A DNA stretch of 64,000 bases from Cytophagales bacterium. GTDB taxonomy: Bacteria > Bacteroidota > Bacteroidia > Cytophagales > JAAEPT01. The DNA lies in the NCBI GenBank assembly GCA_024232295.1, contig JAAEPT010000103.1, forward strand, positions 5,063-69,062, in the 5' to 3' direction. Shown here one piece after another: positions 9,508-38,592 of the stretch (position 1 is the stretch's first letter; the number at the start of each line of letters is the position of its first letter). The translations under genes were made by a program, and so were the position numbers. The notes beneath the pieces are model-generated. The model did not search any database. It was not told the origin of the DNA and worked only from the letters and a program-made list of their open reading frames with translations.

Positions 9508-10332
9508 TTCTTTAAAATCAATGTGATAATGTTCATCATGTAAAGAATTAATTAATGGTCCTAGCTTTTGAACAATATAAATACCACTATTTTTTAACTC
9601 TTTTCCACACTTAGCAGCAAACAACTCATCTTTTAACTCGACCTTAATAATCACTTTTGCAATAGCTAAACCATTTTGTTTGGCAGTCTTATTCAAAGTC
9701 AAAAGGTGTTCAACAACAGCATCAAAATCAATGGAAACAGTTTGATCTTCACTATACTTTCCATCATTATCAAAATCCAACCAGTAATGATTTTTTCCTG
9801 TATTATCAAGATCATAATAAGGTTGATTATTTTTGATTAAAGGCATCATAAAATCCACACTTAACCCATTTTGATGAGTTCTATGTGGATACAACTTGCC
9901 TCCATGTTCATGAGAACATTCCATGATCTGATATTGTCGATTATTAGGTTCTAGTTTTTGGTAAGTCTGAACAACAGCATCTCTCACCTTAATATTTGTA
10001 AAAGCTCTTTTTGCCAAATAGCTTGAAGTATCAAAATATTTATAATTTTTTCCTGTATAAGGCATCAAAACTCCATTATGAAGAGAACCATTTGACACTG
10101 TACCTCTAGACTCACTGCTGGTAATATTCTGTATACTATATTTTTGATAAAACTGCTCTATTGGAGTTAGTTCCTCTGAATCAATTTCAAGTTGAGTATT
10201 TGAAGTATCACCAAGTGTTGTTTCAATCATACTTGATGTATTGGCTGTTCCTTCAATTGTTAGGTTTTGAACTTGAGTATTACATGAAGACAAAATAGAT
10301 AAGAAAACTAAAGAAGAGAGTAAATATTTCAT
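9496..10332 (-). CDS. Penicillin-insensitive murein endopeptidase (MepA-like) lipoprotein
   Basis: Lipobox LSSC; GTVSNGSL, HGGKLYPHRTHQNGLSVDF and H..H.H.D metal-ligand motifs of the MepA/LAS family. Confidence 0.75.
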   Translation of the reverse strand: MKYLLSSLVFLSILSSCNTQVQNLTIEGTANTSSMIETTLGDTSNTQLEIDSEELTPIEQFYQKYSIQNITSSESRGTVSNGSLHNGVLMPYTGKNYKYFDTSSYLAKRAFTNIKVRDAVVQTYQKLEPNNRQYQIMECSHEHGGKLYPHRTHQNGLSVDFMMPLIKNNQPYYDLDNTGKNHYWLDFDNDGKYSEDQTVSIDFDAVVEHLLTLNKTAKQNGLAIAKVIIKVELKDELFAAKCGKELKNSGIYIVQKLGPLINSLHDEHYHIDFKEEVI

Positions 10333-13065: not shown

Positions 13066-13803
13066 TTACTCAAAAACTTTACGATTTAGCTTAAAGTGAT
13101 CACCTAAGTATACTTCTCTTACTAGTTTATCGCTTGCTAATTCCTCAGCAGAACCAGATTTTAAGATTGTTCCTTCAGATAAAATATAAGCTCTATCAGT
13201 AATTGATAATGTTTCATTTACATTGTGATCTGTAATCAAAATGCCAATGTTCTTCTTCTTCAGCTTCCAAACAATTGACTGAATTTCTGCTACTGCAATG
13301 GGGTCAACTCCTGCAAAAGGTTCATCAAGCAATACAAACTTAGGATTTACAGCCAAAGCCCTAGCAATTTCTGTTCTTCTACGTTCTCCACCAGAAAGCA
13401 CCATTCCTAAGTTTTTGCGAACATGAGTCAAAGAAAATTCTTCTAATAATTCCTCTACAATCTCTTTTTGCTTTTTCTTTGGATAATCAGTCATTTCAAG
13501 AACAGCTTTGATATTCTCTTCTACTGTTAGCTTTCTGAAAACAGAAGCTTCTTGAGCCAAGTATCCCAAACCTCTTTGTGCACGCTTATAAACTGGTAGT
13601 TTTGTTACATCCTCTTCCCCTAATAATACATTACCTGAATTAGGTTTTACTAAACCCACTATCATATAGAAGGCTGTCGTTTTTCCTGCACCATTAGGAC
13701 CTAGTAGTCCTACAATTTCTCCTTGTTCTACATGCACAGAAACATCATTAGAAACTGTACGAGAACCATATTTTTTGACGAGGTTTTTTGCTTGTAAAAT
13801 CAT
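13066..13803 (-). CDS. lptB: LPS export ABC transporter ATP-binding protein
   Basis: [52 protein letters not shown]; ATG 13803 (MILQAKNL) preferred as start. Confidence 0.95.
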
Positions 13804-14046
13804 GAGAACGAATAAAACAATGATTGGACCACTAATTAAAGTAGTGAATTTAAGTTTTTTTTGAGGATTTAAAAATAAAAAAGAAAACACGAATATTGGC
13901 TGGGAACCTGTTTTAGTGTTTTCTAGATAGTTTATTAGCTAATCAGTTTGGGTAATTTCATAGCTAGTATAATTATATGCCACTTCTATTGAGTATAGAA
14001 GTTTATTATAGATTGAATATGTTATTATAAACGAAAAGCTTTCTGA

Positions 14047-15705
14047 TTAGGTTTTATAAAATTGAATATCTTTTATAAATAATTGCAATTGGCTTTTTCC
14101 TTTAAATGAATTTTCTTCCACAGTATAAGCCAAACTAAAAGAAACTCCATGACGAAAATAAGGAACAAAATGGCTCATATTAAAGCCAATAGCAGAAGCT
14201 TTGTTTTGTTGCTCATCATAAACTTCAAGTTTGATGTGTTTGTTTTTGAGAACTGATAACTTAGAAAAATAAAGATTATGAGAAACAAAAATAGGTTTTG
14301 AATTCTTTTGACCGAAAGGTTCTAATTTTTCAATTATTCGAAGTAGTTGACGGTTAATATTTTGTAAAGGCAATATCGCATCAATTGCTAATTCCTTCTC
14401 TTGAACTTCTTCTGATAAATGTTTTTTTGCTTTTGCATCAAACATTTCCTTAAATAATTCAAAATTATCATACTTTAGTTTTAGACCACCAGCCAAAGCG
14501 TGTCCTCCAAACTGAATCAATACTTCTTCACATTCCTTCATCAATTCATAAACATTCGTTCCTTCTACTGAACGGGCAGAACCTACTAACTCATCCTTTG
14601 ATTGTGTTAGGATAATTGTAGGTCTATGGTATTTTTCCATGCATTGAGAAGCAACAATTCCGACTAAACCTTTGTGCCAATGAGGAGCAAAAAGTACAGT
14701 AGTAGAAGCCATCTGTAGATTCACATCATTGTCAATCATATTCAAGGCTTCTTGAGTCATTTTTTGTTGAATTTCCTTTCGTTGTATGTTTAGTTTATCT
14801 AAATGTCTTGCTTTTCCTTTTGCTTGAATAAATGTATCACTTAGTAACAAATCAACAACAAGGCTTGCACTTTCCAAGCGACCACCTGCATTAATTCTTG
14901 GAGCAATTCCAAAACTAATTGTTTCACTATCAATCTTATCTCCCAAAGCACCAGCTACATCAAGCATTGCCCTTAGTCCCAAAGAAGGCTTTTCATTCAA
15001 CTGCTTTAAACCATAATGCACAAATATTCGGTTTTCATTCAACACAGGAACCATATCTGCACAAGTTGCGGCAGCCACTATATCCAAATACTCATACAAA
15101 AGATCTAGGCTATATTCTTGTTCAATGCACCATGCTTGTAACAACTTGAAAACAACTCCACATGCACATAATTCTTTGAAAGGATACTCACAACCTTTTT
15201 GCTTTGGGTTTAGAATGACTGTGGCAGGAGGCAATACTTCTGAGGGAAGATGATGATCACAAATCAAAACATCAATTCCTTCTTGTTCTGCTTTGGTTAG
15301 GTTTTCATGAGCACTAATTCCACAGTCAACTGTAATTATCAAATCAATCTTCTTTTCAATCGCATAATCAATACCTTGTTCAGAAACTCCATAGCCTTCC
15401 TTGTATCGATCAGGAATATAGTACTCAATACCATCTGTGTATTGCTTCATAAAAGCACAGAATAGAGAAACAGAACTTGTTCCATCTACATCATAATCTC
15501 CATAAACCAAAACCTTCTCTTTCTGATCAACCGCTTGTTTTAACCTTTCTATAGCTTCTTTCATTCCTTTCATAGAAAAGGGATTATGCAAATCAGATAA
15601 TGAAGGGTGCAAAAACTGTTGGATGATGGCTTCTTCCTCTACACGATGAGCAAGTAATTGTTCTAATAAGTCATTTTTTTCGGTTTTTAAAAATTTCCAC
15701 TGCAT
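14047..15705 (-). CDS. recJ: Single-stranded-DNA exonuclease RecJ
   Basis: YGDYDVDG, TVDCG, DHH, APRINAGGRL, GSARS, FGGH motifs. Confidence 0.95.
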   Translation of the reverse strand: MQWKFLKTEKNDLLEQLLAHRVEEEAIIQQFLHPSLSDLHNPFSMKGMKEAIERLKQAVDQKEKVLVYGDYDVDGTSSVSLFCAFMKQYTDGIEYYIPDRYKEGYGVSEQGIDYAIEKKIDLIITVDCGISAHENLTKAEQEGIDVLICDHHLPSEVLPPATVILNPKQKGCEYPFKELCACGVVFKLLQAWCIEQEYSLDLLYEYLDIVAAATCADMVPVLNENRIFVHYGLKQLNEKPSLGLRAMLDVAGALGDKIDSETISFGIAPRINAGGRLESASLVVDLLLSDTFIQAKGKARHLDKLNIQRKEIQQKMTQEALNMIDNDVNLQMASTTVLFAPHWHKGLVGIVASQCMEKYHRPTIILTQSKDELVGSARSVEGTNVYELMKECEEVLIQFGGHALAGGLKLKYDNFELFKEMFDAKAKKHLSEEVQEKELAIDAILPLQNINRQLLRIIEKLEPFGQKNSKPIFVSHNLYFSKLSVLKNKHIKLEVYDEQQNKASAIGFNMSHFVPYFRHGVSFSLAYTVEENSFKGKSQLQLFIKDIQFYKT

Positions 15706-25428: not shown

Positions 25429-25506
25429 GGGAGATTAGCTCAGTTGGTTCAGAGCACCTGCCTTACAAGCAGGGGGTCACTGGTTCGAATCCAGTATCTC
25501 CCACCA
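25429..25506 (+). tRNA. tRNA-Val(TAC), CCA encoded
   Basis: GGGAGAT/ATCTCCC acceptor stem, CCTGC-CTTACAA-GCAGG anticodon arm, TTCGAAT T-loop. Confidence 0.97.
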
Positions 25507-25513
25507 TATTATT

Positions 25514-25588
25514 GGGGAATTAGCTCAGTTGGTTCAGAGCACCTGCCTTACAAGCAGGGGGTCACTGGTTCGAATCCAGTATTCCCCA
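25514..25588 (+). tRNA. tRNA-Val(TAC), variant acceptor stem
   Basis: GGGGAAT/ATTCCCC acceptor stem, otherwise identical to copy 1; CCA not encoded. Confidence 0.97.
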
Positions 25589-25606: not shown

Positions 25607-25681
25607 GGGAGATTAGCTCAGTTGGTTCAGAGCACCTGCCTTACAAGCAGGGGGTCACTGGTTCGAATCCAGTATCTCCCA
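25607..25681 (+). tRNA. tRNA-Val(TAC)
   Basis: Identical to the copy 1 body; CCA not encoded. Confidence 0.97.
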
Positions 25682-33278: not shown

Positions 33279-35918
33279 TTAATTATACATCTTATGAATA
33301 ATATCTGCTACTAAAGCTGTCCATCCTGTTTGATGTGAAGCTCCTAATCCAGCTCCATTATCTCCATGGAAGTATTCATAAAATAATACATAATCTTTGA
33401 AATGAGGATCATTTTGCATTTTTGGATGACGATTATAAACTGCTCGTTTCCCTTCCTCATCTTTTGTGAAAACACCAATCATTCGTTTTGATAATTCCCT
33501 TGTAACTTCCGGAATTGTTAAGTGATTTTTGCTACCTGTAGGGAATTCCATTGTAAAGTTATCATCATAATAAAAATCAAACTTCCAAAGAGACTCTAAA
33601 ATCAAGTAGTTTACAGGAAACCAAATCGGTCCTCTCCAATTCGAATTACCACCAAATAAGTAAGAGTCAGACTCTCCTGGGTTATATCCAACAGAAAATA
33701 CTTCATCTCCTACTTTAAACTCATAAGGGTTCTCTTTATGGTGTTTTGATAAAGCTCTGATACCATAATCAGACAAGAACTCTTCCTCATCCAATACACG
33801 TTCTAACAATTTCTTCATTCGGAAACCTCTCATTAAAGAGAATAAACGTCTTTCTCCCTTACCAATCTCATCCCAACGAGAGACCAAACGAGCTAATTTT
33901 GGACGAACTTTTTGATAAAAGTCCAATCGATCTCTAAATAAGTGAAGCTTCTCATGAGTTTCGCTTTTCAATGTTTCTACAGCAAATAAAGGAATAATTC
34001 CGACCATTGAACGAATCTTCAATCGCATTGTAGGACCATTTTCCATATGAAGAATATCGTAATAAAAATTATCTTCATCATCCCACAAACTTACTTTATC
34101 ATCAGTAGCATCATGAATTGCTTCTGCAATGTACAAGAAGTGATCTAAGAACTTCATTGCCATCTCTTGATATACTTTATTCTCAGTAGCCAAATCTAAT
34201 GAAATACGAAGCATATTTAAGGCAAACATAGCCATCCAGCTTGTTCCATCAGCTTGTTCTAATTTTCCACCAGTAGGCAAAGGACGACTTCTATCAAATA
34301 CTCCAATATTATCAAGTCCTAAGAAACCTCCTTCAAAGATATTATTACCACTACTATCTTTTCTATTCACCCACCATGTGAAGTTTAACATCAACTTATG
34401 GAAAGCTTGTTCTAGGAATTCTAAATCACCATCACTTCCTTTTTGCTTCTTATCAATGTGGAACACTCTCAATACAGCCCAGGCATGTACAGGAGGGTTT
34501 ACATCACTAAAATTCCATTCATAGGCAGGAATTTGCCCATTAGGATGGATATACCATTCATCCAATAAAAGCAATAGTTGTTTTTTGGCAAAATCTGCAT
34601 CAATACGAGCAATTGGAATACAGTGAAAAGCTAAATCCCATGCAGCATACCAAGGATATTCCCATTTATCTGGCATTGAGATAATATCAGCATTATGTAA
34701 GTGTCTCCAATGCTGATTACGTCCCTGCTTTCTCTCTTTTGGAGGAGTAGAACGACCTTCATCACCATCCATCCATTCCTTTACATTATAGTAGTAGAAT
34801 TGCTTAGTCCACATCAAGCCACCAAATGCCTGACGTTGAATATTAATCAAGTCGTCTTCTTCATCTGGAATTTTTGCTTGAATTTCTTCATAAAAATCAT
34901 CTGCCTGTTGAAGACGCTCAGCAAATAATTGATGAAAATCTACAAAAGGCTGTGACAATTCTTTTTTAGAAAGACGTACACAAACCTCTTTTTTTCCATT
35001 TGCAGGAACTACTACCTTGTAAATACCTGATACTTTGGTTCCCTCCCTATCCACATTAATGGCTTCTTTATGACCGTTTACTACATAGTCATTAATTCCA
35101 TCTTTAGTATACTTACTATTATTAGTGCCTCCATAAAGCAGTTTTCTATTTGTTTCATTATCACAAAAAGCTAACTCTACTCCATCTTCAAAGTATAAAT
35201 GATAATTCCCTAACTCTTCATGGTTAATGGCAACATAAGTATCACTTTCTGCAACCATAGTAGGTACCGAAGTTGTGTATTGTAACCTCCAAGTATTTCT
35301 AAACCATGCAGTAGGTAATAAATATAATTCCTCTTCTCGATCTCCTCTATTCTCAATTACTGCTTTAAATAATAAATCATCTTCATCTACTTTAGCATAC
35401 TCCAAAAAGATGTCATAATACTCATCATTATCAAAGATTCCAGTATCTAGAATTTCGTATTCTAAATCTTGTTTTCCTCTGTGTCTATTCTCATCAACAA
35501 GTTGTTTATAAGGAAATGGATTTTGAGGGTACTTATATAACATTTTCATGTATGAATGTGTAGGAGTACTATCAAGGTAATAATACATCTCTTTCACATC
35601 TTCTCCATGATTTCCTTCATTACCTGTCAACCCAAAGATACGTTCCTTAAGTATAGGGTCTTTTCCATTCCAAAAAGCCCAAGAAAAGTTCAACAGTTGT
35701 TGGCCATCACTTACTCCTCCAATTCCTTCTTCTCCCCAACGATAGGCATTACTACGAGCCATATCATGTGAAACACTTTCCCAAGCAGATCCATCAGCAC
35801 TATAATCTTCTCGGACAGTTCCCCATTGTCTTTCTGTCAAATAAGGTCCCCATTTCTTCCAAGAGACTTTTCCTTCTTCTTCGTCTTTTAGGCGTTGTTT
35901 TTCAATATTATGTTGCAT
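33279..35918 (-). CDS. MGH1-like glycoside hydrolase (GH63-related)
   Basis: WGPYLTERQWGTVREDYS, PDKWEYPWYAAWDLAFH, NSNWRGPIWFP, GLGASHQTGWT. Confidence 0.9.
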   Translation of the reverse strand: MQHNIEKQRLKDEEEGKVSWKKWGPYLTERQWGTVREDYSADGSAWESVSHDMARSNAYRWGEEGIGGVSDGQQLLNFSWAFWNGKDPILKERIFGLTGNEGNHGEDVKEMYYYLDSTPTHSYMKMLYKYPQNPFPYKQLVDENRHRGKQDLEYEILDTGIFDNDEYYDIFLEYAKVDEDDLLFKAVIENRGDREEELYLLPTAWFRNTWRLQYTTSVPTMVAESDTYVAINHEELGNYHLYFEDGVELAFCDNETNRKLLYGGTNNSKYTKDGINDYVVNGHKEAINVDREGTKVSGIYKVVVPANGKKEVCVRLSKKELSQPFVDFHQLFAERLQQADDFYEEIQAKIPDEEDDLINIQRQAFGGLMWTKQFYYYNVKEWMDGDEGRSTPPKERKQGRNQHWRHLHNADIISMPDKWEYPWYAAWDLAFHCIPIARIDADFAKKQLLLLLDEWYIHPNGQIPAYEWNFSDVNPPVHAWAVLRVFHIDKKQKGSDGDLEFLEQAFHKLMLNFTWWVNRKDSSGNNIFEGGFLGLDNIGVFDRSRPLPTGGKLEQADGTSWMAMFALNMLRISLDLATENKVYQEMAMKFLDHFLYIAEAIHDATDDKVSLWDDEDNFYYDILHMENGPTMRLKIRSMVGIIPLFAVETLKSETHEKLHLFRDRLDFYQKVRPKLARLVSRWDEIGKGERRLFSLMRGFRMKKLLERVLDEEEFLSDYGIRALSKHHKENPYEFKVGDEVFSVGYNPGESDSYLFGGNSNWRGPIWFPVNYLILESLWKFDFYYDDNFTMEFPTGSKNHLTIPEVTRELSKRMIGVFTKDEEGKRAVYNRHPKMQNDPHFKDYVLFYEYFHGDNGAGLGASHQTGWTALVADIIHKMYN

Positions 35919-36044: not shown

Positions 36045-36734
36045 TTATTTTAAGGCTTCTAAAGATGCAGATAAAGACTCATCAATATTACCAAATTTAT
36101 TCTGGTAATCTAATTGACTTTTCTTGATTACTTCTAATGCTTCTTCTTTTCCATAAGTTTCAACAATCTCACATTTAGGTTTTTGACCTTCAGCAGGAAT
36201 TTCTTTATAAGTTAAGAAGTAATGCTTCAAACGGTTGATTACAGAAGCAGGAACATCAGAAACATCCTTCCATTGTTGGTAAACTTCATCACCTTTCAAT
36301 ACAGCTATGATTTTATCATCAGCCTCTCCTCCATCAATCATTCTAAACCCTCCAATAGGAATAGCAGGAACGATTAAATTTCCGTGAGTAATTTGTCTCT
36401 CTGTCAACACACAGATATCTAAAGGATCTTGATCTCCTACGATTTCTGGTAAGTTGTTCTTATCAGCACAGTTTTTTGCAACTTCATCATCACAATAAGT
36501 TTGTGGAACGAAACCATATAATGCTGGTACAATATTAGAGAATTTTTGAGGACGATCTACCATTAAGTATCCTGTCTCTTTGTCAATTTCGTACTTTACT
36601 TGGTCAGTCGGTACAATCTCAATAAATGTATTGATAACTTCTGGAGCATCTTCCCCTACACTGATTCCATGCCAAGGGTGTGCTTTGTAACGTAACCCTA
36701 AATTTTTCAAAAGGTTATTTGACTCTTTACTCAT
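36045..36734 (-). CDS. ppa: Inorganic pyrophosphatase (family I)
   Basis: HPWHG, VKYEIDK, YGFVPQTY, GDQDPLD, DGGEADDKII. Confidence 0.93.
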   Translation of the reverse strand: MSKESNNLLKNLGLRYKAHPWHGISVGEDAPEVINTFIEIVPTDQVKYEIDKETGYLMVDRPQKFSNIVPALYGFVPQTYCDDEVAKNCADKNNLPEIVGDQDPLDICVLTERQITHGNLIVPAIPIGGFRMIDGGEADDKIIAVLKGDEVYQQWKDVSDVPASVINRLKHYFLTYKEIPAEGQKPKCEIVETYGKEEALEVIKKSQLDYQNKFGNIDESLSASLEALK

Positions 36735-36851: not shown

Positions 36852-37454
36852 CTAAAATTCATTATCAATCGAGGTGGTTTGTTTTTTCGTTTTGACACCT
36901 AAGAAACCAAATAGACTACCACAAATACCTCCCAAAATATGACCAAAATAAGAAACATTTGATTGTTCTTTCCAACCAATTGCTTCTTGTGAGGCAAAAG
37001 CAAACTCCTTTCCTAGAAATACAACTACTACCAGAATAAAGGTCATTGGTATTTCTCCAGACTTAACATTTACCACTGAACTCAAAATAATAAACATGTA
37101 AACCAAACCACTTGCTCCCAACAATGCAGTATCCATAAATAAGACATTTAACACACCAGGAATTAGAGCAGTAATTAACATCATAATCATCAAATCTTTT
37201 GAACCATATTTTTCTTCCAAAATAGGTCCAAGAAGTAGAATGAAAATAAAGTTATTGGTAAAATGAGTCCAGTCAGCATGTCCCATTGCATGAGAAACCA
37301 AACGAAAATAACTGATGGGATTTTGAAAAGTAAAATCAGGATAAACAGTAAACAAAGGCATTACACTTCCTACCAAAATATTATCCAATAATAGAATAAA
37401 AGCACAGAAAATGGTAAAAGTTAGAATAACTGGAGAATTGTATCTTAGTCTCAT
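36852..37454 (-). CDS. Rhomboid-family intramembrane serine protease
   Basis: H...H...N, GASG, SYFGHILGG. Confidence 0.9.
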   Translation of the reverse strand: MRLRYNSPVILTFTIFCAFILLLDNILVGSVMPLFTVYPDFTFQNPISYFRLVSHAMGHADWTHFTNNFIFILLLGPILEEKYGSKDLMIMMLITALIPGVLNVLFMDTALLGASGLVYMFIILSSVVNVKSGEIPMTFILVVVVFLGKEFAFASQEAIGWKEQSNVSYFGHILGGICGSLFGFLGVKTKKQTTSIDNEF

Positions 37455-37542
37455 ACTATCAAAAATTAAGTGTCACTTACTATATACAAAAATAAGAGAT
37501 TTAATGAAGGTCTCAAGAATTTTATTTTTTTTTCGAAAAAAA

Positions 37543-37570
37543 TGTAACCCTTTTCAAAACACTCCGTTAT
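37543..37570 (+). promoter_or_regulatory. ECF-sigma-type promoter
   Basis: TGTAAC (37543-48), 16-nt spacer, CGTT (37565-68); fits the general ECF -35 AAC / -10 CGT pattern. Confidence 0.6.
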
Positions 37571-37575
37571 AAATG

Positions 37576-38006
37576 ATATCAACACAAAATAAAAACAGTA
37601 AAAAACACTGCTGTAGTTGATAAAATCAAGTGTTTAAGCAACTATGTTAAATTCAGGGAGTCCTTTTCCCCATAGAGGTTCAAGTGAGAACAAGATTAAT
37701 CAAATCAAAAGAAGTTTAAGTTTAACTATGGGAAGTTCGCTGTCTCCCCAAGGGTCTACAAGACAAGATATCCAAGTATCGCAGTAAGTTCTTAAAGGTT
37801 TGCGCATTTATAAAATAAAAATTACTCCAATCATTTATTGCAGTCTTTTAAACCGGGTAATAAAATAAAAATAAGTAGTGCAAATTATCATTAATCTAGG
37901 GATATGTCCGATCCCAGAAAGGCTTAAAAGAGAGCAAGATGTAAAAATCACGGAAAAGAATTATCAAACACCTCATATTCTATCTTGAATATGAGGTGTT
38001 TTTTTT
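37576..38006 (+). ncRNA. Candidate ~430-nt structured ncRNA with three repeated modules
   Basis: Bounded by the ECF-like promoter and a terminator; no ORF of 60 aa or more; three 40-42-nt GGGA..TCCC hairpin + AGG + CAAGAT modules. Confidence 0.5.
37966..38006 (+). terminator. Strong intrinsic terminator upstream of apt
   Basis: AAACACCTCATATTC-TATCTT-GAATATGAGGTGTTT followed by a T-run. Confidence 0.85.
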
Positions 38007-38055
38007 GCCCCATATTTAGTTTTCTCTATCTTTGTTTCTTACAATAATAAGAATT

Positions 38056-38592
38056 ATGGAAACTATTCAAGAACGTATCAAAAGCAGTATCCGAGACATC
38101 AAAGACTTTCCAAAAGAAGGAATTATTTTTAAGGATATTACGCCTATTCTAAGTGATGTTAGTTTATCAAATGACATTGTAGAAGAGTTTGTAAAAAGCA
38201 TTCAAGAAAAAGGGATTAAAATAGACGCAGTAGCTTGTATTGAAGCAAGAGGCTTTTTGTTTGGACCTATGATTGCACAACGTTTATCTGTTCCTTTTAT
38301 TCCAATTCGTAAAAAAGGAAAACTTCCTTATGATACTATCTCTTATGAATATGATTTGGAATATGGTTCTGCTGTTATTGAAATGCACAAAGATGCTGTT
38401 CAAAAAGACTGGAATGTATTGATTCATGATGACTTATTGGCTACAGGAGGTACAGCAATTGCTGCTGCTGAGCTAATCAAAACAGAAGGGAATGTAGCTG
38501 GTTTTTCATTTTTAGTAGATTTAACTTTCTTAGATGGGAATAAGAAACTAAAAGAGTATTCTGATAATGTTCTAAGTCTTATTAAGTACTAA
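38056..38592 (+). CDS. apt: Adenine phosphoribosyltransferase
   Basis: DFPKEGIIFKDITP, EARGFLFG, YDLEYG, DDLLATGGT; own TATCTTTG promoter motif at 38027-34, so ATG 38056 is preferred. Confidence 0.95.
   Translation: METIQERIKSSIRDIKDFPKEGIIFKDITPILSDVSLSNDIVEEFVKSIQEKGIKIDAVACIEARGFLFGPMIAQRLSVPFIPIRKKGKLPYDTISYEYDLEYGSAVIEMHKDAVQKDWNVLIHDDLLATGGTAIAAAELIKTEGNVAGFSFLVDLTFLDGNKKLKEYSDNVLSLIKY

Follow-up and report, generated by a model that had tools for sequence, protein, structure and literature searches.

The DNA analysed here, called the window, is a 64,000-nucleotide (nt) stretch of the genome of a low-GC marine Cytophagales bacterium (contig JAAEPT010000103.1, positions 5,063 to 69,062 of the forward strand). 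A 601-bp gap, with a rhomboid-family gene on the minus strand on one side and apt, an adenine phosphoribosyltransferase-like gene on the plus strand, on the other, contains what is probably a real stand-alone RNA gene. The predicted non-coding transcript is preceded by a promoter-like motif, ends in an intrinsic terminator and carries a structured module that occurs three times. The triple module is real. The fuller reading, in which this is a stand-alone, lineage-specific RNA that is made by an alternative sigma factor and works as a multivalent decoy, is put forward tentatively, as a possibility that we rate well below even. A preliminary description of the locus had pointed out the unit and proposed a stress-sigma-induced RNA that is either a CsrB-like protein sponge or a precursor of sibling RNAs; every element that it listed was found where it had been placed, so that its observation is confirmed, and its interpretation is partly supported. 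Its outline of a self-contained plus-strand unit holds in particular, with a promoter-like motif, no open reading frame (ORF) beyond 47 amino acids (aa) and an orphan terminator.

The three modules follow one layout, in which UUAA is followed after 4-5 nt by hairpin 1 (GGGA, a 7-11-nt loop, UCCC) and, after a further 2-5 nt, by AGG and hairpin 2. The final G of AGG opens hairpin 2, the closing C of hairpin 2 starts CAAGAU, and AAGAU is single-stranded, leaving invariant unpaired UUAA, AGG and AAGAU segments around the hairpins in all three copies (Table 1). The modules are spaced 74 and 169 nt apart. The preliminary description had recognised one hairpin with CAAGAT per copy; both are present, but each module in fact contains two hairpins, and it is the second that covaries. 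When both strands are searched, the 2,936,691-bp genome matches the pattern GGGA-N5-14-TCCC-N1-7-AGG-N9-18-CAAGAT three times, always at the modules described before, within 285 nt at 37656-37940. A looser ordered pattern also occurs three times in the window, where 0.03 occurrences would be expected, and none of 100 shuffles reaches three. Both patterns were devised after the data had been seen, hence two less tailored tests were applied to positions 37577-37962. In the generic one, which takes any 6-mer occurring three times together with 4-mers that recur in the same order within the preceding 45 nt and does not start from the motif of the preliminary description, the sequence scores 36.6 bits, a value matched by 4 of 2000 shuffles, and CAAGAT is picked together with TTAA, GGGA and TCCC. 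Furthermore, a covariance model for which modules 1 and 3 alone were used recovers module 2 in the 451-nt unit (15.3 bits, E 0.0021). By its sequence module 2 is the most divergent of the three, a distant copy; module 1 reaches 64.7 bits against the three-module covariance model R2, which was built from it.

Pairing is maintained across the copies. Taking both helices in the three modules together, all 24 cells are paired (24/24), as is reached by 5 of 500 shuffles, and sliding the partner strands out of register lowers pairing to 38-68%; the count rests on an alignment fitted to that structure and on three paralogous copies from one genome. In stem 2 (GUUC/GAAC, GUCU/AGAC and GCUU/GAGC), three of the four pairs are altered on both sides. 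The G-U pair of module 1 and the U-G pair of module 3 are valid on the plus strand only, which is also the strand of the terminator. The minus-strand tail of the terminator hairpin is not T-rich, and because the closest upstream genes (36852-37454, 36045-36734 and 33279-35918, together covering more than 4 kb) all lie on the minus strand, the plus-strand terminator can serve only a transcript that starts in the gap.

Two further hairpins appear in the predicted fold. The arms of the 5' hairpin, TATCAAC (37578-84) and GTTGATA (37616-22), are without comparative support. In the long hairpin between modules 2 and 3, both sides of the internal loop consist of the identical A-rich 12-mer UAAAAUAAAAAU (DNA TAAAATAAAAAT), at 37811-22 and 37860-71. 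In the loop that caps this hairpin, 17 nt (37838-37854) show 82% complementarity to 37921-37937, in hairpin 2 of module 3, a possible alternative fold that would hide module 3.

Table 1. Features of the RNA unit and its two neighbouring genes, in window coordinates.
Feature	Position	Strand	Description
Rhomboid-family gene, divergent neighbour	36852-37454	minus	Pfam Rhomboid, 3.4e-17
Likely rhomboid -7 box	37494-37487	minus	TATTTTTG, from sequence
Promoter-like motif	37545-37575	+	TGTAAC-N15-CCGTTATAAA; pattern of extracytoplasmic function (ECF) type, -35 'GTAAC', -10 'CGT'
Predicted non-coding transcript	37577-38009	+	about 430 nt, both ends inferred; start 6-8 nt past the CGTT box, end at the terminator T-run
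5' hairpin	37578-37622	+	UAUCAAC/GUUGAUA around a smaller stem; minimum-free-energy and centroid folds
Module 1	37645-37700	+	core 37656-37696; UUAA 37647-50; GGGA 37656-59 / UCCC 37667-70
Module 1, second half		+	AGG 37676-78; stem 2 GUUC 37678-81 / GAAC 37688-91; CAAGAU 37691-96
Module 2	37719-37773	+	core 37730-37769; UUAA 37722-25; GGGA 37730-33 / UCCC 37745-48
Module 2, second half		+	AGG 37751-53; stem 2 GUCU 37754-57 / AGAC 37761-64; CAAGAU 37764-69
Long hairpin between modules 2 and 3	37797-37888	+	minimum-free-energy and centroid folds; apical stem AUUAC/GUAAU
Module 3	37889-37944	+	core 37899-37940; UUAA 37891-94; GGGA 37899-902 / UCCC 37912-15
Module 3, second half		+	AGG 37920-22; stem 2 GCUU 37922-25 / GAGC 37932-35 (U-G pair); CAAGAU 37935-40
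Intrinsic terminator	37966-38009	+	15-bp perfect hairpin 37966-38001, loop UAUCUU, then T-run
Predicted apt promoter	38003-38034	+	TTTG (-33), 20 nt, TATCTTTG (-7; 38027-38034); from sequence
apt, adenine phosphoribosyltransferase-like, downstream neighbour	38056-38592	+	Pfam Pribosyltran, 8.6e-13; ATG at 38056

A closely similar sequence was found in an RNA library. One assembled contig of 282 nt from an RNA library lies wholly within the unit (37600-37881) and is 96.5% identical to it, with 10 differences. Five of the ten were located: position 37672 in a module spacer, 37698 and 37703 in a linker, and 37803 C>U and 37804 G>A in the long hairpin, where pairing with 37880 and 37879 is still possible. 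None of these five falls in a module anchor or stem, as would, by our own estimate, be the case for about 13% of random placements. In the same metatranscriptome run, the flanking genes are covered by a single 48-nt piece that runs into unlike sequence at both ends. Two further runs had no cover at all; absent cover was not counted as evidence.

That the locus encodes a small protein instead, from the 47-aa ORF (37644-37787) or a second one of 36 aa (37878-37988), is highly improbable. The longer frame does begin with ATG and spans modules 1 and 2, and a Shine-Dalgarno sequence is not needed in Bacteroidota, according to a flavobacterial study (PMC9723704). Yet it has no homologue among the 25-83-aa proteins of a 5.8-billion-protein set and no Pfam match, and by our own reading two of the three located contig differences within it alter the amino acid. 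In addition, the module anchors are read in different frames, GGG and C-AAG-AT in module 1 as opposed to GGA and CAA-GAT in module 2, so the repeat exists at the nucleotide level and is not a peptide repeat.

The position of the unit, in the same orientation as apt and directly adjoining it, together with a terminal hairpin resembling riboswitch expression platforms, would also suit a long cis-acting apt leader, in which the modules sense a ligand or protein and choose between termination at 37966-38001 and read-through. The 3' half of module 1 (37679-95) is 76% complementary to the 5' arm and loop of the terminator (37973-89), which offers a possible alternative pairing; this complementarity is weak for an anti-terminator, and its partners lie about 280 nt apart. 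We regard such a leader as very unlikely. Between the terminator and the apt ATG there is a well-spaced TTTG-N20-TATCTTTG, by its sequence a predicted Bacteroidota-type -33/-7 promoter, which bears out the claim that apt has a promoter of its own; TAnnTTTG is given as the -7 consensus of flavobacteria (PMC9723704). Moreover, no riboswitch or leader family of Rfam reaches its gathering score at the unit, and the one family relative, out of 12, in which the region upstream of apt was read (G008) has a minus-strand gene there and no such leader.

The terminator has a second relation to the modules: its loop and the following G (37979-37986) hold AUCUUG, of which CAAGAU in the modules is the exact reverse complement. 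The two may be in contact within the RNA, or the match may be due to chance.

Upstream of the transcript, the promoter-like motif consists of TGTAAC (37545-37550), 16 nt and CGTT (37567-37570), and so matches, as a pattern only, the ECF-type arrangement of a -35 (G)AAC and a -10 CGT at a spacing of 16-17 nt; a CGT box at -10 is taken as an ECF signature in a flavobacterial map of transcription start sites (PMC9723704). The extended form GTAAC-N15/16-CCGTTATA (GTAAC-N15/16-CCGTTRTA) occurs at three sites in the genome, all of them intergenic, and the reversed-pattern control at none. Given the base composition of the genome, we calculate that about 0.003 second copies of the 17 shared bases would be expected by chance. 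The motif probably functions as a promoter that is read by an alternative sigma factor of the ECF type. One of the other two sites (C33:92339-92366) lies about 50 nt before the start codon of rpoN, which encodes sigma-54, and in a relative (G009) TGTAAC-N15-CCGTTGTACA is likewise found upstream of rpoN. The motif was not seen within 160 nt upstream of rpoN at 11 other relative loci (10 further genomes), and a looser search in G009 returned only coding-region matches besides the rpoN site. These sequences suggest that, in some members of the family, rpoN may be transcribed with an alternative sigma factor. A motif match in G008 was rejected as a promoter, being inside a gene, and a search for an autoregulated promoter that would reveal the responsible sigma factor found none.

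The remaining site (C128:14055-14083) precedes a second structured, ORF-free orphan unit, which lies outside the window on the minus strand (about 13795-14083) behind GTAAC-N16-CCGTTATAAA. This unit of about 250 nt has no ORF; it forms a long-range helix of 15 bp, and an intrinsic terminator lies at its end. Its fold has a z-score of -6.2, and none of 200 shuffles folds as well. Rfam gives no match to it at E<=0.1, and a search of 20 relatives found no homologue. The gene just after its terminator is presumably LOG-like, judging from its N-terminus.

No known RNA family accounts for the unit at the rhomboid-apt gap, in agreement with the preliminary description. No Rfam family reaches its gathering score there; the 19 matches at E<=10 fall mostly over the terminator region, and the sole Bacteroides small RNA (sRNA) family among them, BTnc005, scores 22.4 bits, compared with a gathering score of 174.8, over the terminator only. 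ARAGORN reports nothing at the locus. Transfer-messenger RNA (tmRNA) and RNase P RNA were dismissed as identities, as had been supposed, both being located elsewhere in the genome (C90, 132 bits, and C119, 261 bits, respectively), and signal recognition particle RNA gives only sub-cut-off matches on C24 and C17 and none here. A search for 6S-Flavo had no match in this genome, nor did it have any in the control genomes. We also discarded a tandem-repeat array or ToxI-like type III antitoxin: Tandem Repeats Finder returned no rows at a minimum score of 30, and the downstream gene is apt.

In the mechanism that we favour, an RNA of about 430 nt would be transcribed independently on the plus strand from the alternative-sigma (ECF-type) promoter and would end at its own terminator. 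Internal duplication would have given rise to the three paralogous modules, and each of these would offer a docking site, so that the RNA binds and titrates a partner, the likeliest being a protein that recognises both the invariant sequence of stem 1 and the AAGAU tail. The RNA would thereby act in trans as a decoy for as long as its sigma factor is active. A decoy is favoured because of the length of the RNA, the repetition of a structured site, the conservation of the stem sequence beyond what pairing requires and the short invariant single-stranded flanks; about 430 nt with repeated structured sites suits titrating RNAs better than typical base-pairing sRNAs. A more specific version, namely a new RNA-protein titration system in which the three GGGA/UCCC-hairpin and AAGAU modules sequester a dedicated RNA-binding protein in a phylum without CsrA and Hfq, within a very small regulon that includes rpoN and the second orphan RNA, seems quite unlikely to us; in it, the single RRM_1 protein encoded in the genome (C152) would be one candidate partner.

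The unpaired invariant segments flanking the hairpins of all modules might instead be seeds, and the A/U-rich linkers that separate the modules would fit such an arrangement. The transcript could then regulate mRNAs by base pairing, or be cut into sibling sRNAs that do so, with three short seeds formed by AAGAU, possibly with AGG, or by a hairpin loop. CAAGAU has, with its exact complement in the terminator loop, a pairing partner at least in cis, a complementarity that fits the decoy and the base-pairing reading alike. Paralogous sRNAs with a common 5' seed are in fact described from Bacteroides (FopS; PMC11697453). We find this alternative rather doubtful, as no more than 3-6 nt are conserved in each unpaired stretch, a base-pairing sRNA would be expected to be shorter, and the strictest element (GGGA/UCCC) is hidden in a stem. 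A target scan of the RNA against the genome (blastn, word size 9) likewise gave nothing above chance among 40 of 186 matches, which were not ranked by score; the longest antisense match among those 40 is at chance level (18 nt, one mismatch, E 3.8).

The same scan contained a 19-nt exact match (E 0.004) of the linker between modules 1 and 2 (37705-37723) to C118:48986-49004, inside a 725-aa ORF that we take, from its N-terminus, to be sucrose-phosphate-synthase-like. This match is same-sense, so that the linker would not pair with that mRNA.

With the decoy reading in mind, the RNA may work like CsrB, RsmZ or CrcZ, by analogy and not as a member of their families. CsrB, RsmY and RsmZ carry many GGA motifs in hairpin loops or single-stranded spacers, which are bound by CsrA or RsmA. 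The RNA described here resembles them in being intergenic, free of ORFs and a few hundred nt long, with its own promoter and terminator and repeated small stem-loops, and differs in placing GGGA inside a stem, in having three units only, and in the lack of a CsrA match and of an Rfam match. We therefore rejected a strict CsrB-like identity, and with it the CsrB-like sponge of the preliminary description in its strict sense: in every fold GGGA makes up the 5' side of the hairpin 1 stem, CsrA was not found, and no Csr/Rsm family is among the 19 Rfam matches at E<=10. In CrcZ and CrcY the A-rich or CA-rich tracts are unpaired, and the staphylococcal RNAs RNAIII and RsaE present UCCC in loops. In all of these, as in our RNA, a short conserved motif recurs along a single long regulatory transcript, whereas UCCC here is paired with GGGA, and the unpaired invariants are UUAA, AGG and AAGAU. 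The sigma-E-dependent (ECF) sRNAs MicA, RybB and MicL are short, Hfq-dependent and equipped with a single seed; like theirs, the gene described here is non-coding and preceded by a -35 'AAC' / -10 'CGT' pattern of ECF type, but its RNA is about 430 nt long and modular, in a genome where neither Hfq nor an ECF sigma gene with the motif was detected.

A further comparison comes from the same phylum. FopS comprises 14 separate genes, each with a canonical sigma-A promoter and each for an sRNA of about 65-70 nt whose 5' seed is single-stranded, and the paralogous Bacteroides sRNAs FopS and GibS associate with the RRM protein RbpB (PMC11697453). Shared with the FopS/GibS-RbpB system are the phylum, the lack of Hfq and CsrA, the repeated related RNA units and the presence of an RRM-type protein; in contrast to FopS, the three units here lie within one long transcript and the motif upstream is non-canonical.

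Several results weigh against the decoy reading or against parts of it. The RNA contig comes from one ribosomal RNA-depleted seawater metatranscriptome, a run that was selected for containing this stretch, and it documents a near-identical sequence in an RNA library and does not prove transcription, strand, ends or level. As to the modules, the second of the less tailored tests, ungapped self-similarity, is not significant (its best pair, module 1 with module 3, is reached by 69 of 1000 dinucleotide shuffles), and across the 64-kb window the model of modules 1 and 3 gives module 2 an E of 0.29, with a chance site at 9987 scoring higher, at 19 bits. Both module stems are just 4 bp long, and stem 1, GGGA/UCCC, is invariant in its natural register and hence uninformative about pairing. 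The body without the terminator folds only modestly beyond shuffles and similarly on both strands (z -1.98 and -1.65), so the case for structure rests on the modules and the terminator; because no homologue was found, selection on that structure rests on the three paralogous copies of one genome. The bare motif TGTAAC-N16-CGTT is not enriched in the genome (3 occurrences, compared with 4-12 for scrambled versions), and it is absent within 250 nt upstream of all 11 ECF-type sigma genes found with the sigma70_r4_2 profile. The ECF promoter of the preliminary description accordingly stands as a matching pattern whose extended form recurs, but not as an enriched motif or one carried by any of the 11 sigma genes; the genome scan for it that was suggested there likewise yields two other intergenic sites, of which the rpoN site has its counterpart in G009, alongside an unenriched bare motif. 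On the side of the partner, no protein was identified for the modules: CsrA (PF02599) has no match in this 95.2%-complete genome, in a search that was positive in Escherichia coli, Bacillus subtilis and Thermotoga maritima, and Hfq (PF17209) was not found in the same 95%-complete genome. An absence of both from Bacteroidota is also stated in PMC13370968.

The conservation searches point in the same direction. With blastn, positions 37500-38030 gave only a 25-nt low-complexity match in 40 relatives, and the three-module model R2, applied to sets of 12 family, 150 order and 150 phylum genomes, gave only single matches at chance level. At E<=0.05 there were 9 and 5 genomes with matches in the order and phylum sets, where 7.5 were expected in each, and no genome of the three sets besides the source has two neighbouring matches. 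The best match outside the source scores 27.6 bits (G003); another, in G073, was rejected as a relative, since it lies in a minus-strand ORF. In the 12 family genomes, matches to the module pattern are scattered and about as frequent as those to a reversed-pattern control. The sets overlap, and blastn or model covered 312 distinct other genomes of the phylum; across these Bacteroidota genomes no second instance was found of the module that the preliminary description had envisaged as conserved in relatives. The unit is single-copy in its own genome and is therefore not a dispersed repeat. Its genus has a single representative, apt identity to family relatives being at most 69%. While apt is present in 13 of 13 family genomes, rhomboid lies within 1.5 kb of it in one of the 12 relatives, G008, where an unrelated gene occupies the gap. 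A rhomboid-based synteny search of genome-contig and metagenome-contig collections found one locus in each, a 46%-identical Treponema metagenome-assembled genome.

The gap in G008 holds a 328-aa minus-strand ORF (L053:450-1432) whose N-terminus, by reading only, resembles a signal peptide. The idea that the present gap contains a remnant of this gene was dropped: the best tblastn match of the protein to the gap has an E of 0.58, and there is no match at E<=0.01 elsewhere in the genome.

Such a pattern, with no relative carrying the RNA and an unrelated 328-aa gene between rhomboid and apt in G008, would also be expected if the unit yielded a functionless transcript, real or sporadic, from a fast-evolving spacer shaped by local duplications, the modules and stems being relics. 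The 4-bp stems, the weak and strand-unspecific thermodynamic signal and the modest self-similarity agree with this. A recent unselected duplication, however, fails to explain double changes at three of four stem-2 pairs with 24/24 cells paired, a 15-bp terminator and a 17-base motif with two further intergenic copies are unlikely to be leftovers, and the five located contig differences spare anchors and stems, which is a weak point given how often chance would produce it. On balance we hold a functionless spacer to be unlikely, and treat the unit as a well-formed candidate: its RNA would found an orphan non-coding family that is new but of a general kind already known. We found no description of this kind of RNA in the literature searched, a limited collection. 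Post-transcriptional control in Bacteroidota is poorly understood; if confirmed, the RNA would be an entry point to an alternative-sigma regulon, through the motif that it has in common with rpoN, and maybe to a new RNA-binding partner. At present it is one more orphan sRNA candidate, useful as annotation, and settles no open question.

The wider surroundings of the locus are of a housekeeping character and include genes for a GH63-like hydrolase, an inorganic pyrophosphatase, SUI1 and a SpoIIE-type phosphatase. The sole gathering-score Rfam matches in the window are three consecutive plus-strand tRNA genes (25429-25503, 25514-25588 and 25607-25681). In the T-run that lies between the rhomboid promoter and the promoter-like motif of the RNA, a long contig of a DNA run has one T fewer at position 37525, which is either homopolymer length variation or an assembly difference.

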